Notes: generated from the sequence alone by a model not told the origin. Shown: positions 5,665-52,143, numbered from the stretch's first letter. The stretch: DNA of 64,000 nucleotides from an uncultured Candidatus Saccharibacteria bacterium (GCA_964552475.1 CAZKFZ010000003.1:24078-88077), one strand, 5' to 3'. A program made the numbers and translations.

Positions 5665-6699
<1,035 letters not shown>

Positions 6700-46600: not shown

Positions 46601-47146
46601 TTATCGTGTAGGTGGCAGCCCGTACTGAGCTAAGCTACTGTTCTTATAGCCTGGCTCATTACTCACCTCGTTTGCAACACCTAGCCATGCTGGCAACTCA
46701 AAGGTAAATATTTCTGGACGTACTTCTTTAAGCCAACTTAGAAGAGAGGTCTCATCTTGGGTATCATCGGTAGCGAGCTCTACTAGCCACTCAGCCTCAA
46801 TAGTGACAAGCCCATCTAGATTGTCATGGTACTTGTCTAGCTCAAGCTTAACCCCACTTGGGTTATAGAATGTCCATCGGGTTTTTCTAAGCCTGTAAGC
46901 CGATAACACTACAAGCTCATCGTAGAGCCACTTTGGAATTTCAACTTCTTCTTCTACTCTAGCAACATCACCATCAGATTTTTTAGTTACTGTATAGTTT
47001 CTGCCTGCACTTCTAATGCGAAACCCACCTTTTCGAGTACTAATATAGTTTTGCTCTATTTCTTGAATACTGGCATTTAGTATCTGACCAAATGTCGTGA
47101 AACCAGGTAAAACCCATTTACGTTCTACCTCGATAGTTTGGGGCAA
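46601..47146 (-). CDS. CYTH-like (triphosphate tunnel metalloenzyme) domain protein
   Basis: N-terminal 'IEVERKWVL' matches the CYTH ExExK signature; 181 aa. Confidence 0.5.
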   Translation of the reverse strand: MPQTIEVERKWVLPGFTTFGQILNASIQEIEQNYISTRKGGFRIRSAGRNYTVTKKSDGDVARVEEEVEIPKWLYDELVVLSAYRLRKTRWTFYNPSGVKLELDKYHDNLDGLVTIEAEWLVELATDDTQDETSLLSWLKEVRPEIFTFELPAWLGVANEVSNEPGYKNSSLAQYGLPPTR

Positions 47147-47260
47147 GACATCTCCTTAAAAGGTAGTAGGCCAACAACAGGTTAGCACGGACCAGTTTTG
47201 GCGTCTAGTCAAAACATTTTAACTAAAAGTAAAACCCCAGAATCTCTCCCGGGGTAAATG

Positions 47261-47926
47261 TTATTTTGATTTAAACTTATCGAGCAACCCAGCCATCCCA
47301 AAATGTAGCTTCTGTTGATATTGGGCATCCTCAAGCGCATGGTGCGTGAAGTCGCCACCCGGAACTATGATCGGTGGCAACTTGTTCTTACTAGTCTTTG
47401 ACCAATCCCACTCGCCAGTTAGCGGCAAGGCAAGCGACTTGAGATCAAACGGGGCTATCCCAAATGGGTTGTCCATACCGGCCTTTGCAAAATACATATC
47501 GACAAAGGCGAAGTCAAACGCTGCGTTGAAGGCTGTGAAAACCACTGGCTTACCATGCTTTTGCATCAATTCACTAAGCCATTCTGCAAATTCCCGCATT
47601 ACCTGCTCAAAGTTCGGCGCCTCTTGAAGCAGTCGTTCACGTGGTAGCCCATGAGTTTCGCAAAACTCCCGTTGGCCTAGCACAAAGTCTTCACTGATCG
47701 GACGAATCTCAGAATAATACGACTCGCCAGTTGGGCTCTGGGCACCGATCGACAGCATTGAGCCATGCCCTGCCTTGCCATCGGCCTCAATATCTACATC
47801 GACGTACAGTTGTGGCGCGGCCAGCACAATCTCGCGCCCGCGTTCGTATAAGCGAGCACGCTCGCCTTCAATGCTGTCATGCACTCCAAATTCTGACGGT
47901 TCATTCATATTACTAGTATAGCTCAT
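47261..47926 (-). CDS. DEDDh-family 3'-5' exonuclease (DnaQ-like); first gene of the GC-rich island
   Basis: Exo I 'VDVDIEADG', Exo II 'FNAAFDFAFVD', Exo III 'HHALEDAQY'; GC content clearly above the window background. Confidence 0.7.
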   Translation of the reverse strand: MSYTSNMNEPSEFGVHDSIEGERARLYERGREIVLAAPQLYVDVDIEADGKAGHGSMLSIGAQSPTGESYYSEIRPISEDFVLGQREFCETHGLPRERLLQEAPNFEQVMREFAEWLSELMQKHGKPVVFTAFNAAFDFAFVDMYFAKAGMDNPFGIAPFDLKSLALPLTGEWDWSKTSKNKLPPIIVPGGDFTHHALEDAQYQQKLHFGMAGLLDKFKSK

Positions 47927-48048
47927 GTTGTCTCCTTATGTAGAGGTCAAGGTGCCTTCTGGGAGCGGTTCCCAACCAAAACTCTTGATTACTCTCAAGA
48001 ACTTTGGTTGGGGGAGCTTTTTTATAGGAGCTCCCAAAACCTATTAAG

Positions 48049-48291
48049 TTAGCACCTGTCTGAGTGTATGAAACAGCCACCAACTGCAGTGTCGCAGCCA
48101 CCAGGGCACTGCCTCCCAGCAGCTACTTCGCGAGCTATATAGTCATTCTCTTCTCGCTTTCGCTGGGCAGCCCGCGCGTAATCTCCGCGCGCTTCGGCAG
48201 CTTGCCACTCATAAGCTTCTGCCCTAAGTCTCGCAGCTCTGGCCTTGCCTTCTAGCTCTGCAGCTCGTGCTTCTGCTTCGTAATCGCGCAA
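48049..48291 (-). CDS. small coiled-coil protein with C-terminal Cys-rich zinc-knuckle motif
   Basis: TTG start; Ala/Arg/Glu-rich helix then 'CPGGCDTAVGGCFIHSDRC'; preceded by island leader motif copy 2. Confidence 0.4.
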   Translation of the reverse strand: MRDYEAEARAAELEGKARAARLRAEAYEWQAAEARGDYARAAQRKREENDYIAREVAAGRQCPGGCDTAVGGCFIHSDRC

Positions 48292-48568
48292 CTCTATTCC
48301 TTTGTCTAGGCACTACCGTGTATTAACGGCCTGGGACACTCCCAGCCAAAATACTCGAATGCTTTCAAGAACTTTGGTTGGGAGGGAGCCGGCTTACAAT
48401 AGCCGACTCCCTCGGTAAGACAGATCTACCAAAAGATCGCGCGCAGAGCGACGAACTCTAGATAGCTAATTAGCGCGAGTACAGCCAAAATGGTGAGGGT
48501 GGTGAGTCGCTGTGTTGTGATGGGCTTCATTGCTTTCTCCTATGATGTGTAGTGAAGGGTAGTTGAGA

Positions 48569-49093
48569 CTAGCAGCTACTGGCATGTACAAAACATCCGC
48601 CAACATCGGTGTCGCAACCGCCCTTACATTTCATGCGCCCACCTATCATCTGTTGGGTAGCTATGCGACGCCTACGCTCGGCTTCATGTGCCTCGGATCG
48701 CTGTCTTGCTTGACGGTTGTTCAGACCCGGATAGAATCCGCTGGGAGCATCAAGCCATTCTACACTCTCATAATCTATCTCTTCTTTAGGTTGATCATCG
48801 TGTTGGAAGGCTTTGCTTGTTGGCATTTTCGTAGGAATGCCCACCTTCTTCTTAGACTCTTGCGTAGTTGTTTGCGTGTTTTGCCACACAACCACTCGTC
48901 TTTTGCATACCGGGCATTTTACTGCCAGAAATTTTTCTCGCGTCACGTAGGTATCGGCTTGATCAACCTCGATCTTACTACCGCATTTTTCGCAGGTTAC
49001 TCGCTTGGGCCATTTCAAATGCTTGGTACCCGTTTCGATGATTCTCAATTTAATCTCCTTGTAGAGGTGCAAACCTGGGAACTTCCCAGCCAA
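48569..49093 (-). CDS. zinc-ribbon protein with the same C-terminal Cys-rich motif
   Basis: 'CEKCGSKIEV...CPVCKRRV' zinc ribbon; C-terminal 'CKGGCDTDVGGCFVHASSC'. The true start is probably the TTG downstream of the conserved 'CACCTCTACAAGGAG' element, not the listed ATG. Confidence 0.4.
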   Translation of the reverse strand: MAGKFPGLHLYKEIKLRIIETGTKHLKWPKRVTCEKCGSKIEVDQADTYVTREKFLAVKCPVCKRRVVVWQNTQTTTQESKKKVGIPTKMPTSKAFQHDDQPKEEIDYESVEWLDAPSGFYPGLNNRQARQRSEAHEAERRRRIATQQMIGGRMKCKGGCDTDVGGCFVHASSC

Positions 49094-49164
49094 AACTCTC
49101 GAATAATCAAGGGCTCTGGTTGTGAGGAGCTTTTAGCAGGAGCTCCTTGAAACCTGTTTAAGGT

Positions 49165-49497
49165 CTATTGCAACTTTCTAATCACTTCTTCTACAGTAAG
49201 TCTCACAATTTCTTCTAGCTGCGCCTTGGTAATAACTCTTCTCTCTTTGGTCGTTTCTTCGGGCTTTGGACCTAGCCAAACATGATCTCGAGTGCTAGTG
49301 CAATTTTTACGACCACTAGTGTTGCATGTGTTACACCAAGTAGGTGGGTAGGTATAGTCTGGATCCATACTTTCGCGTACAGTATACCAACCAGTACGAA
49401 CTTGTTCAGTATGAGTAACTGTGTGGTAAGACATCTGCCTCCTTGTGTAGGTGCGGACTGATTTCGTCGTTTTCGACTCTTCAGGGCGAGTACACAC
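49165..49497 (-). CDS. hypothetical small protein (GC island)
   Basis: 110-aa ORF preceded by the conserved 'CACCTACACAAGGAGG' ribosome-binding element. Confidence 0.35.
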   Translation of the reverse strand: MCTRPEESKTTKSVRTYTRRQMSYHTVTHTEQVRTGWYTVRESMDPDYTYPPTWCNTCNTSGRKNCTSTRDHVWLGPKPEETTKERRVITKAQLEEIVRLTVEEVIRKLQ

Positions 49498-49548
49498 TCG
49501 CCGATCAAGGGGAGGTTTTGAAAGGACCTCCCTGAAACCTTTCTCGAC

Positions 49549-50142
49549 TTAGCCGAGACTTGTCAGGTCTGCGAGCACTTGCTGAAACACCCGTTCGGCC
49601 TTGCGGTCAATATTGGGCTCGGCAGCGATGAAGTTGTGACGTGGGTGGGCGCTCCACACTTTTCGAGTTGACAGTTCGAGTTTCGTGGCCTCCTCGAGCG
49701 ACTCCATGCGGTCGGCGTTGCCCTGCGTGCCGTAGTTCGCAGGATTGCCGGTCGCCAGAGACTCTAGGTGGTAGATAGCGCAGTAGCGTTGCAAGGTCAT
49801 ATCCAGATCTACCCCGTAGGTCTCTGTATACTCCCTTACACCGCCTTCTAGGTAAGCTGCTCCGTCCAGAACACCTCTATCAAGCACTAGAAGTTCTTTG
49901 CCGGTTCGCTCAGCCTCGGCCAACCAGAAGTTTTCTAGCCGTAGTTGAAGCTCGAGAATGGCACCCTGAAAGTGGTGTCGCCAAGTAGGGCTGTACTCAA
50001 TCTCGCGCCCTGGTACCGGGTAGCCACCTGCGAGTAGAATGGTGGCAGACTCAGGCACAAAGGCGGCATTTGGTAGCGCGCTTCGCAAGTGATCTATTAC
50101 ACTGCTTTTTCCAGCACAAGGTCCACCAGTTAGTACCAGCAT
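49549..50142 (-). CDS. P-loop NTPase / small kinase-like protein (AAA_28 / NadR-C-like)
   Basis: N-terminal Walker A 'LVLTGGPCAGKSS'; 197 aa; 'LVLDRG' Walker-B-like. Confidence 0.5.
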   Translation of the reverse strand: MLVLTGGPCAGKSSVIDHLRSALPNAAFVPESATILLAGGYPVPGREIEYSPTWRHHFQGAILELQLRLENFWLAEAERTGKELLVLDRGVLDGAAYLEGGVREYTETYGVDLDMTLQRYCAIYHLESLATGNPANYGTQGNADRMESLEEATKLELSTRKVWSAHPRHNFIAAEPNIDRKAERVFQQVLADLTSLG

Positions 50143-50444
50143 GGGTGTAGGTATGGTTATTCCTCCAGTTGTAGGTGCTACCGTCCGGACTATCCGGCTC
50201 GGCTACCTGGCAGTGATCACATTGTGCCAGGATACCGAGTCGGAAAGCTATAGAGGCTTTATACTTACTACCACCTACGTGCTTAGTATGTGTGTTTAGT
50301 AGCTATGTATCTAGTCAATTTATTTTGAGTTAAGGTTCTTTAACTTTCGCCCTGCGTTTACTGTAGGTGGGCTCATCAGGACTGGTACTCACCAGTCGAG
50401 TTAGTGGGAGCCTTTAGCAGGAGCTCCCTGAAACCTGTCACGTC

Positions 50445-50720
50445 TCAGTTGATGCGACGCTCAGACTTGTTGCGAGAACCTACCGGCACCGTTGCTGAGC
50501 AGTTCGGGCAGATCACCACCGCCAGCTCCTCAGTAACCCGGTACTTTACTCGGTCTTCGTCTCGACCGTGCCCAGGGTCGGGGTCGAAGTAGCGGATGTA
50601 GCTGTGGTTCACCCAGCTAACCAAGTCTACCTTGTGGTCCACTTCAACCACCGATCTGCAGTTATGGCAGGCGTGTTGGCGTCGATCGTGGTGGGCATTC
50701 TGTTGGTGGACTATACGCAT
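50445..50720 (-). CDS. small zinc-ribbon protein (GC island)
   Basis: 'CHNC...CPNC' four-Cys arrangement; His-rich N-terminus; preceded by palindromic leader copy 4. Confidence 0.4.
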   Translation of the reverse strand: MRIVHQQNAHHDRRQHACHNCRSVVEVDHKVDLVSWVNHSYIRYFDPDPGHGRDEDRVKYRVTEELAVVICPNCSATVPVGSRNKSERRIN

Positions 50721-50854
50721 GTTGCTCTCCCTGGTGTCGAGGTGCTACACTCCGCTTGCGCGGGTGCCTAGGAACGGTTCCCAGCCAAAACTCTCGATAG
50801 TTCAAGGGCTTTGGTTGGGAGGGAGTTGGTTTTTAGGCCAACCCCCTCAGGAGG

Positions 50855-51175
50855 TCAGTCGAAGTACCTCTCGTTGCTGCGAAAGCTACTGAAGACTGGG
50901 ATCGAGCACCTACCGCTTCGGTTGCCACACCCCCAGTTGTTGACGTAGAGATATCCTTCCGGCACTTGGCGCCACCCGTCAAAATCATCTTCGGGGTAGC
51001 GCTCCATGTCCTTCCTCATCTCTATTTCCTTCAGCCGCTCTAGCTCTTCTACTGTCTTGGGGAGTGTTTTTGAGTCGTGGACGAAGACCATCCGCTCGCG
51101 CCTTGCTCTTTCGAGAGACACGTAGTGGTTCTCTTTGTTCATCACCCCTGCGGCGATACATCCTGCTGAACCCAT
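50855..51175 (-). CDS. hypothetical small protein (GC island)
   Basis: 106-aa ORF preceded by 'CACCTCGACACCAAGGAGAAAAG'. Confidence 0.35.
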   Translation of the reverse strand: MGSAGCIAAGVMNKENHYVSLERARRERMVFVHDSKTLPKTVEELERLKEIEMRKDMERYPEDDFDGWRQVPEGYLYVNNWGCGNRSGRCSIPVFSSFRSNERYFD

Positions 51176-51339: not shown

Positions 51340-52143
51340 TTGTGCTATAATTGCAGTATGGAAACCGATACCCTTAAGGAATTAGGCTTGAGCGAATCAC
51401 AGGCTAAAATGTATTTACTCTTAATGCAGTATGGTAGTCTCACTCCACCCGAGGCAGCCAAACAGGCTGGCGAAACACGTACCACTACCTACTCAATACT
51501 CGAAAGACTTGAGACACTTGGCTTGGCAAATAAAAAGACTGGAGTTAAAAAAGTAACTTATAGCCCCACCAACCCAGCCGCGCTCGAAAAACTTGCTGAA
51601 GCTAAATACCAGCAGTCGGCCGAGCTAAAACAAAAAATAGCCAGTAATATGGCTCGCTATATGACATATTTTTATACCTACCAAGAACAACCAGGGGTAA
51701 GATTTTTCCAAGGTAAAGATGGCATTATTAAGATGTACGAAGACCAGTTGCGTACCAAGAAAAATATCTATTTTTTGCGTTCAGAAAGCGATGTAAATGT
51801 AATGGGTAAAACTATTTATAAGGTCATAGAAAATCGTCACAAGCTGGGTATTAAGGTCTACGGTATTGAGGCTGGTGAAGCTGACAATGTTGAGTTTTCA
51901 CGCCAAAACGACCTTAGGCTAGGCCGAAAGATATCTTTTTACCCTACTGGTATGTATAGTGCGCCGGTTAATTTTTATACCTATGGCACCAAAACCGCTT
52001 TAATATCTTATGGTGAAGAAGTGATAGGTACTATTATAGAGTCGCCCCAGATAGCCCAAGCCTTCCGGCAAATCCACACCATGCTCAAAATAGCCGTAGA
52101 TTCATTAAGTGATCGTCCTAAAAAGGGTAAACTAGAGATATGA
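51340..52143 (+). CDS. TrmB-family HTH transcriptional regulator
   Basis: 'LGLSESQAKMYLLLMQYGSLTPPEAAKQAGETRTTTYSILERL' TrmB-type wHTH; likely real start is the downstream Met (METDTLK...). Confidence 0.55.
   Translation: MCYNCSMETDTLKELGLSESQAKMYLLLMQYGSLTPPEAAKQAGETRTTTYSILERLETLGLANKKTGVKKVTYSPTNPAALEKLAEAKYQQSAELKQKIASNMARYMTYFYTYQEQPGVRFFQGKDGIIKMYEDQLRTKKNIYFLRSESDVNVMGKTIYKVIENRHKLGIKVYGIEAGEADNVEFSRQNDLRLGRKISFYPTGMYSAPVNFYTYGTKTALISYGEEVIGTIIESPQIAQAFRQIHTMLKIAVDSLSDRPKKGKLEI

Follow-up and report, generated by a model that had tools for sequence, protein, structure and literature searches.

A Cys4-His tail common to two small Saccharibacteria proteins: a putative metal knuckle in a gene cluster punctuated by hammerheads and hairpins

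What brings together two neighbouring small proteins that end in nearly the same Cys-rich string? The question is posed by a stretch of 64,000 nucleotides from an uncultured Candidatus Saccharibacteria bacterium (GCA_964552475.1 CAZKFZ010000003.1:24078-88077), hereafter termed the window, where two minus-strand genes, A and B, encode proteins with a common C-terminal tail of 19 residues that contains four Cys and one His. Saccharibacteria are ultrasmall epibionts with reduced genomes, and most of their small proteins are uncharacterised. The answer to which we give about an even chance is that the tail forms a metal-binding knuckle, by default for zinc, which would lend stability to the end of a helical adaptor and, jointly with a zinc-ribbon protein, act on a common partner, expressed from a unit divergent from the gene of a TrmB-like regulator. 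Relatives are cited by locus (L) and protein (P) numbers, and the coordinates of all main features are collected in Table 1.

Two genes and one tail

The tails of A (CPGGCDTAVGGCFIHSDRC) and B (CKGGCDTDVGGCFVHASSC) are identical at 13 of 19 positions, and residues 18-80 of A align with residues 127-174 of B, as B was first listed, at E 4e-10 (BLASTP). These figures bear out the original prediction that two paralogous proteins carry a common C-terminal Cys-rich module. The likeness is not due to chance, since a tail-only profile recovers the B product at E 5.8e-13 in a search of 1.84 billion representative proteins. Robust homology covers approximately the last 30 residues; a helix in front of the tail had also been thought to be common to both proteins, but these helical regions are only loosely alignable. 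Most third-codon positions differ between the two tail-coding sequences, and hence A and B are paralogues of long standing, kept by protein-level selection, and not products of a recent duplication.

The module comprises about 25 residues with the consensus (V/I)-x-x-G-R-M-C-P-G-G-C-D-x-x-V-G-G-C-h-x-H-[AS]-D-x-C-COOH and lies at the extreme C-terminus of every family member. Its spacing across the family is C-x3(4)-C-D-x4-G-G-C-x2-H-x3-C, where C, G-C-D, G-C, H and the terminal C do not vary; in the 18 members compared, which represent six diverged subgroups, these fixed positions amount to four Cys, one His, one Asp and two Gly.

The start of B had to be revised. Both the list of open reading frames (ORFs), with a minus-strand entry at 48569-49093, and the original prediction gave B 174 residues. 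The TTG codon at 49093, from which this product would start, sits within a repeated leader hairpin. A second TTG at 49048 is preceded by the Shine-Dalgarno sequence AAGGAG and yields a 159-residue product that begins MRIIETG, and the orthologue at L021 begins alike (MRIIETGTEHL...) with a GTG codon behind the Shine-Dalgarno sequence GAGGTG. Because of this agreement, and because the upstream codon falls inside the hairpin, the true start is almost certainly TTG 49048. Gene callers likewise gave 159 residues on other assemblies of the same organism. In the NCBI-sourced record P0001, B is called as a 106-residue fragment that starts inside the ribbon. The A product is 100% identical to P0003 in public assemblies.

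Both genes are genuine protein-coding genes under strong purifying selection. Compared with five orthologues, A has a proportion of synonymous differences (pS) of 0.5-0.9, which is near saturation, and a proportion of nonsynonymous differences (pN) of 0.1-0.3; for B and the 139-residue fusion protein of L021 the values are pS 0.87 and pN 0.24, with ribbon, A-like segment and tail similar. This analysis rules out that A and B are spurious ORFs, and a 195-residue ORF antisense to B is a shadow ORF, since the pS/pN pattern of B shows that selection acts on B.

The family is small. Within the window, a six-frame regular-expression scan finds the motif in A and B only, and among the 1.84 billion proteins the tail profile retrieves just nine clusters at E ≤ 1e-3. 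All proteins in these clusters are 54-159 residues long, including some of 54, 58, 64, 82, 88 and 94 residues with N-termini unrelated to that of A. Among 5.8e9 proteins there are approximately 18-22 clusters at 90% identity (18 with a 42-column profile), and a word-index search at E ≤ 10 with the 42-column profile recovered small stand-alone proteins but no other domain architecture with the tail. A has about 12 relatives of 80 residues (64-85% identity), and B only one true relative, P0002. All tail carriers with names are Candidatus Saccharibacteria, Saccharimonadia or Patescibacteria metagenome-assembled genomes. No tail relative occurred in 2.9 million viral contigs, and B had no tblastn match in 50,697 phage genomes. 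A metagenome scan with a closer profile yielded three loci. At L026 two tail genes, encoding 52 and 94 residues, stand in tandem, and paralogue pairs thus recur. Within a small clade of Saccharibacteria, the tail gene is stably maintained, usually as a single copy.

Two further proteins are of note. P0014 (81 residues, from a Logan/ENA contig) is a relative of A that diverges past residue 30 and has lost the tail, most simply through a frameshift or an assembly error. A 62-residue ORF at L007 (5267-5455, plus strand) ends in ...KCSVKGCNYPADSGYPNLPLCYDHDYGRC, with a ligand order (C, C, C-x2-H, terminal C) that resembles the tail, a longer insert and a C-x2-H-x4-C end; it has no counterpart in the window, and the tail hidden Markov model (HMM) did not detect it as a divergent member.

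The motif had not been recognised as a named domain, and this view stands: no described family in Pfam, NCBIfam, PHROGs, PADLOC or PDB matches it, and the Pfam and NCBIfam profile scans do not map it to a known zinc-finger family. A as a whole has no match in Pfam, NCBIfam, PHROGs or PADLOC. When 11 members were compared with Pfam at E ≤ 1, all matches of B fell on its ribbon (residues 9-67), and those of the other members were weak (E ≥ 0.016) and did not recur. Neither the tail profile nor B retrieved a solved chain in sequence searches of the PDB.

A putative metal site and its ribbon partner

AlphaFold2 models of A (alignment of 11 sequences, mean predicted local distance difference test score (pLDDT) 80) comprise helices at residues 4-35 and 38-57, a predicted Ala/Arg/Glu-rich antiparallel hairpin with a conserved R35-G36-D37 turn. 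In the tail of A, a beta-bridge between residues 61 and 67 and a short helix at 72-76 are modelled at pLDDT 58-73. The model of B (predicted template modelling score 0.32) contains a ribbon with strands at 16-18, 25-27, 41-44 and 51-55 (pLDDT 75-88), a disordered linker (58-80), a helix (111-131, pLDDT ~90) and a tail at pLDDT 50-56. These models lend weak support to a knuckle-plus-helix picture of the tail.

To judge from conservation and models together, the most likely core of the tail fold is a metal ion, by default zinc. The CPGGC turn would then form one knuckle with two thiolate ligands, the C-x2-H at the start of the short helix would provide the other two ligands, and the invariant terminal Cys might serve as a fifth or alternative ligand. 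Such a knuckle would cap the Ala-rich antiparallel helical hairpin in A, and in B it would be tethered to an MRI-type zinc ribbon.

The ribbon itself is well defined. The N-terminal domain of B carries two CxxC knuckles (C19-x2-C22 and C45-x2-C48) on beta hairpins and matches phrog_2834 at E 1.8e-6; Zn_Ribbon_TF, DUF7560, S27e and other families also match, all below their Pfam gathering scores. Of the two CxxC ribbons claimed for B, the ribbon fold is upheld by the phrog_2834 match and the modelled strands, and the number is corrected to one. According to a local ribbon HMM, a ribbon gene adjoins the tail gene at L007, L014 and L020, and ribbon and tail are fused in the window (as B) and at L021/L022. 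The L007 orthologue of B has the ribbon without the tail and a different, acidic C-terminus. Adjacency in some genomes and fusion in others (a Rosetta-stone pattern) suggest that the ribbon protein and the tail protein are probable partners, whether joined in a complex or active on a single target. At L007 (4196-4591, plus strand) the ribbon HMM also matches a pair of neighbouring ORFs that are out of frame with each other (E 0.0048 and 3.7e-6); they look like a frameshifted stand-alone ribbon copy and are preceded by a hammerhead.

The second conserved association is with the regulator gene. An orthologue of the TrmB-family gene (~290 bits) is divergently oriented 0.2-3.1 kb upstream of the tail gene at all loci with enough upstream DNA except L018, that is, in the window and at L001-5, L007, L009, L011, L012, L015-17, L026 and L027. 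The tail gene is probably under the control of this regulator. Genes on the outer side of the TrmB/tail loci vary (PGI, a 303-residue ORF, the exonuclease, a 112-residue ORF), and those between TrmB and tail gene show no homology to one another across loci. The literature contained nothing relevant on Saccharibacteria in connection with TrmB or with hammerhead ribozymes.

The neighbouring DEDD exonuclease had been put forward as a possible common partner of A and B. Only in the window and at the closest relative, L007, does it lie beside the tail gene; the neighbours differ at L001, L005, L012, L015 and L021, and the proposal is not supported. The conserved associations of the tail gene are the TrmB-like regulator and the MRI-type ribbon protein, not the exonuclease. 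No other defence-system components were found among ten neighbours scanned with PADLOC.

Several points weigh against a metal knuckle that acts with the ribbon under TrmB control. Metal binding by the tail is argued from a conservation pattern and from predicted secondary structure of low confidence (pLDDT 58-73 in A, 50-56 in B), and five invariant potential ligands are more than one structural zinc needs. In about half of the lineages (L001, L005, L009, L011, L012, L015, L018) there is no ribbon gene within +/-6 kb. L018 has no TrmB gene nearby, and the adjacency elsewhere could reflect synteny inherited within one clade rather than regulation.

The surplus of ligands leads to an alternative that we consider unlikely, namely that the tail binds an iron-sulfur (Fe-S) cluster through three Cys and the His or through four Cys, possibly bridging two chains, and serves as a small redox or iron sensor. 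The invariance of four Cys, His and Asp within 19 residues would suit such a site, as would the position of the member P0016 next to NrdR, ribonucleotide reductase and a thioredoxin-fold-like ORF of 84 residues. A literature search for the CPGGC string retrieved only the P3 motif of [FeFe]-hydrogenases and unrelated sequences. In this motif, ExMxCPGGCxxGxGQ, both Cys ligate the [4Fe-4S] subcluster of the H-cluster (PMC11406978), and the tail resembles it locally in M-x-C-P-G-G-C and an ensuing Gly-rich stretch. The likeness extends over 6-7 residues, however, and P1 (TSCxPxW), P2 (MPCxAKK) and the H-domain are absent from the tail proteins, which are 54-159 residues long. Membership in the hydrogenase H-domain family was rejected, given a partial P3-like string alone without P1 or P2, and the parallel is a lead only, one that speaks for the metal knuckle as well: it demonstrates that a CPGGC turn is able to offer two thiolates to a metal centre, but no more than that. 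Furthermore, the spacing C-x3-C-x6-C-x2-H-x3-C fits no known Fe-S signature testable here, no Pfam or NCBIfam Fe-S family is matched, and no Fe-S assembly genes are conserved nearby.

Hairpins and hammerheads between the genes

The minus-strand genes run from ~51175 to a T-tract terminator (47234-47255), and a promoter-like sequence, TTGACT-17-TATACT, is located upstream of the cluster at 51260-51232. Each intergenic gap contains a GC hairpin followed by either a hammerhead or a hairpin of ~18 bp. In the favoured reading, the tail gene would be transcribed within this same-strand cluster, and the cistrons would be split by self-cleaving hammerheads or by the conserved long hairpin.

Table 1. 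Features of the A/B cluster and corresponding elements in relatives. Positions refer to the window unless a locus is named.
Feature	Position	Strand	Remarks
DEDD (Rv2179c-like) exonuclease	47261-47926	-	PADLOC PDLC00753 'Effector / Exonuclease', E 1.1e-32
Leader hairpin copy	47970-48012	-	between A and the exonuclease gene
Gene A	48049-48291	-	80 residues; TTG start behind AAGGAA Shine-Dalgarno sequence
Tail of A	48052-48108	-	C62-P-G-G-C66-D67-T-A-V-G-G-C73-F-I-H76-S-D-R-C80; C80 is the final residue
Leader hairpin directly upstream of A	48340-48382	-	CCCAACCAAAG..CTTGA..TCGAG..TTTTGGCTGGGA
Gene B, revised start	48569-49048	-	159 residues: MRI-type zinc ribbon, disordered linker, A-like helix, Cys4-His tail
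Tail of B	48572-48628	-	C141-K-G-G-C-D-T-D-V-G-G-C-F-V-H155-A-S-S-C159
Zinc ribbon of B	48884-49003	-	residues 16-55; C19, C22, C45, C48; local ribbon HMM 73.5 bits
Leader hairpin upstream of B	49084-49124	-	contains TTG 49093
Type III hammerhead, first	49458-49508	-	between AAA_28 gene and 89-residue gene, in the slot filled by hairpins elsewhere
Type III hammerhead, second	50341-50403	-	between 91-residue ribbon gene and AAA_28 gene; stem/core parse
Stand-alone MRI-type zinc-ribbon paralogue	50445-50720	-	91 residues, no tail; ribbon HMM 101 bits; phrog_2834 E 1.3e-4
Leader hairpin copy	50779-50819	-	upstream of the 91-residue ribbon gene
TrmB-family regulator	51340-52143	+	PF01978 E 1.5e-12; divergent from the minus-strand cluster with A and B
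Hairpin copies in relatives	L007 5926-5967; L012 1971-2011; L026 1202-1244, 1806-1847; L027 4769-4809; L028 409-450		
Hammerheads in relatives	L001 2146-2198, 10577-10628; L007 4245-4295, 5189-5244, 5493-5543; L009 6293-6345, 7019-7070, 11982-12033; L011 622-674, 10572-10623; L015 5512-5568; L018 5369-5425		

The long hairpin has the consensus CCCAACCAARG..CTYRAG-loop-CTYGAG..TYTTGGCYGGGA, interrupted by an internal loop and by a conserved A-C mismatch, and is situated between the GC hairpin and a GCACCT..AAGGAG leader. All four copies in the window fall within the A/B cluster; in total, ten copies are known from six genomes, with fold z-scores from -3.6 to -6.1. Covariation is modest (82.8% of cells paired, four compensatory pairs; 10 of 500 shuffles reach the observed score), and there is no Rfam match. 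The element might act as a DNA operator, as an RNA bound by protein or as an RNase III-type site; in the last case it would offer an alternative to processing by hammerheads. An integron attC reading of the palindromes was dropped, as the R'/R'' consensus was not recognised by eye and no integrase was seen.

Might the tail proteins themselves bind this leader hairpin in their own and neighbouring mRNAs, for autoregulation or control of processing? We regard this as quite unlikely. Eight of the ten hairpins lie directly 5' of a tail-protein gene, including both in the window and both at L026, their outer-stem sequence and A-C mismatch are kept despite saturated synonymous sites, and the helices of the proteins are Arg-rich. 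The evidence is correlative only, however, and A is net neutral with ~15 acidic versus 14 basic residues. The tail genes of L005 lack the hairpin, at L001, L009 and L011 its slot is occupied by a hammerhead-like variant, and copies of the hairpin also stand in front of the exonuclease and ribbon genes; an RNase III-type site or DNA operator would account for the element equally well. About as improbable is the full version of the idea, in which the tail proteins are Saccharibacteria-restricted, metal- or redox-dependent mini-regulators that bind the leader hairpin of their own genes together with the MRI-type ribbon protein and control processing or translation of a TrmB-divergent operon punctuated by hammerheads and hairpins. 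If true, such hairpin-binding mini-regulators would constitute a small post-transcriptional circuit without a described counterpart.

The first hammerhead in the window (Table 1) has a complete core over the full RF00008 model (32.5 bits, E 2.6e-4), an AUC cleavage site, stem I GGCGAGU/ACUCGCC and stem II GUCG/CGAC; its 3' half is identical at L021, where it lies directly upstream of the B-like fusion gene. The second has a 16-nt stem II loop and an orthologous copy at L007 (3343-3404). Rfam gives no RF00008 report for it at E ≤ 10, and its stem I appears only as a spurious 'HIV-1_SD' match. The Rfam gathering threshold of 48.5 bits is not reached by the first hammerhead or by those of relatives (35.6-43.5 bits). 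A core-only pattern without imposed pairing finds 13 distinct sites in the window and the loci, all of which form three stems; the type III core (CUGANGA...GAAA) is complete, with an AUC or CUC site, in keeping with the NUH cleavage triplet, closed stems I and II and open stem III that define this type. Across 15 sequences, including the second hammerhead, 97.6% of cells are paired, a percentage inflated by the fact that part of the set was picked by a script requiring stems, and 15 of 18 pairs are compensatory; the covariation score is 0.85, compared with 0.26 for shuffled and ~0.1 for slid alignments.

Covarying type III hammerheads are frequent in the intergenic regions of these Saccharibacteria genomes, not only near tail genes. 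One at L001 shares its strand with the tmRNA gene, which lies ~90 nt downstream of it, and in three species one is located between a 578-residue gene and groES. A hammerhead-like element at L001 (~5920-5985; also at L009 and L011) precedes the A orthologue in the slot of the window's long hairpin. It reads CUGACUC|GGAGAG..CUCUCC CUGACGA U GACCG..CGGUC GAAA GUCAG, with an extra U after A9, is unrecognised by Rfam and is a putative variant.

In prophages, single genes flanked by multiple hammerheads have been described, and cutting of polycistronic RNA into gene-length mRNAs was proposed (Perreault et al. 2011, PMC3088659). The arrangement in the window is similar, as several type III hammerheads lie between single small genes on the same strand, and by analogy it implies that the hammerheads may likewise cut a polycistronic RNA into gene-length mRNAs. 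It differs from the prophage arrays in its Saccharibacteria host, in the alternation of hammerheads with a non-ribozyme hairpin and in their presence beside housekeeping loci. The alternation of covarying hammerheads with a conserved hairpin suggests that ribozyme-based mRNA processing may be routine in this lineage, and this punctuation is arguably of more general interest than the tail.

The same parallel bears on the origin of the cluster. Relative to L001, the window and L007 contain an extra block of ~2.5 kb between TrmB and A, which includes genes for the ribbon, the AAA_28 ATPase, an 89-residue protein and B. Together with the exonuclease and the CYTH-like gene, this block might be mobile or phage cargo with B as an accessory, for example in anti-defence, a view that we hold to be improbable. 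Its insertion between TrmB and A, the raised GC content (0.50, against ~0.40), PHROG matches of ribbon, exonuclease and CYTH-like proteins, the PADLOC exonuclease-effector match (E 1e-32) and the hammerhead-flanked genes typical of prophages (PMC3088659) are all compatible with cargo. Against these stand the lack of tail relatives in the viral contigs and of B matches in the phage genomes, as well as a cluster in which neither an integrase nor structural phage genes were seen. In addition, the block is syntenic at L007, and hammerheads also occur in non-phage contexts, beside tmRNA and ahead of the groES region.

Positions 48001-50000 have a GC content of 0.50 compared with ~0.31-0.45 over most of the window, and this GC-rich section coincides with the Ala/Arg/Gly-rich small genes and with the block missing from L001. 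Other minus-strand proteins of the cluster merit mention. Those of 89 residues (49165-49434; W-C-N-T-C-x7-C-x5-H) and 106 residues (50855-51175; G-C-G-N-R-S-G-R-C) have no family match. The 181-residue protein (46601-47146) starts with MPQTIEVERKWVL, shows a CYTH-type ExExK signature by eye and matches phrog_6660 at 5.7e-10, with no Pfam match at E ≤ 0.01; its L021 homologue, recorded as 'CYTH (weak)', directly follows the B-like fusion gene. Between B and A, an unlisted 34-codon ORF (48426-48530) behind a good Shine-Dalgarno sequence (AGGAGA) encodes the hydrophobic peptide MKPITTQRLTTLTILAVLALISYLEFVALRAIFW, possibly a small membrane protein; L007 has no equivalent space.

The tail itself is a lineage-restricted domain, with a role inferred from its context, of which there are many in metagenomes. 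Nevertheless, a single-copy, selected and syntenic protein of 80 residues with a putative metal site, a fusion partner and a neighbouring regulator represents a tractable entry point. If the tail proves to be redox-active or RNA-binding, the zinc-finger and Fe-S repertoire would gain a new mini-domain.

Relation to known families

That A and B are precursors of ribosomally synthesised and post-translationally modified peptides, with a helical leader and a Cys-rich core cross-linked by a maturase, is very improbable: the small size, the Cys-rich extreme C-terminus and the Cys, Asp, Thr and Ser of the tail core recall thioether-forming ranthipeptides, but no radical SAM, YcaO, lanthipeptide synthetase or peptidase/exporter gene lies within +/-6 kb at any locus, the core is conserved at least as much as the leader, and in B the 'core' forms one protein with a folded ribbon of 55 residues that precedes it. 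Membership in such precursor families (e.g., SCIFF/ranthipeptide) was rejected, as called neighbours contain no maturase domains and NCBIfam no matching precursor.

The DksA/TraR finger (PF01258) has the spacing C-x2-C-x17-C-x2-C and follows a coiled coil. A resembles these proteins in overall cartoon, since its modelled helical hairpin, conserved RGD turn and C-terminal Cys module recall a coiled-coil hairpin with an acidic tip and a zinc module that enters the secondary channel of RNA polymerase. Membership was rejected, given that A has no Pfam match and a different Cys spacing, and with some family members lacking the hairpin, which is thus dispensable, we give a DksA/TraR-like function very little credence.

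The zinc ribbons are represented at this locus in their own right. The N-terminal domain of B and the 91-residue paralogue are similar to rubredoxin-like ribbons (Zn_Ribbon_TF, DUF7560, MJ0042-type; phrog_2834) with two CxxC knuckles. This likeness is limited to the N-terminal domain of B, and the common tail is not a ribbon: a ribbon assignment was rejected, as two CxxC/CPxCG knuckles are not present (C-x3-C and C-x2-H-x3-C instead) and no ribbon HMM touches the tail.

Closest in character are the small Cys/His zinc knuckles and treble-clef-like fingers, among which the retroviral CCHC knuckle has the spacing C-x2-C-x4-H-x4-C. The tail shares with them a size of ~20 residues, four or five Cys/His ligands and, in the predicted secondary structure, a Gly-rich turn that holds two Cys, with further ligands where a short helix begins; like such knuckles, it is appended to a helical or ribbon scaffold. 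It differs from the described knuckles in its spacing C-x3-C-D-x6-C-x2-H-x3-C and its obligatory C-terminal Cys, and it matches no finger in Pfam or NCBIfam. On sequence grounds, the tail thus appears to be a previously unclassified variant among the small Cys/His metal knuckles, confined to a few Saccharibacteria lineages.

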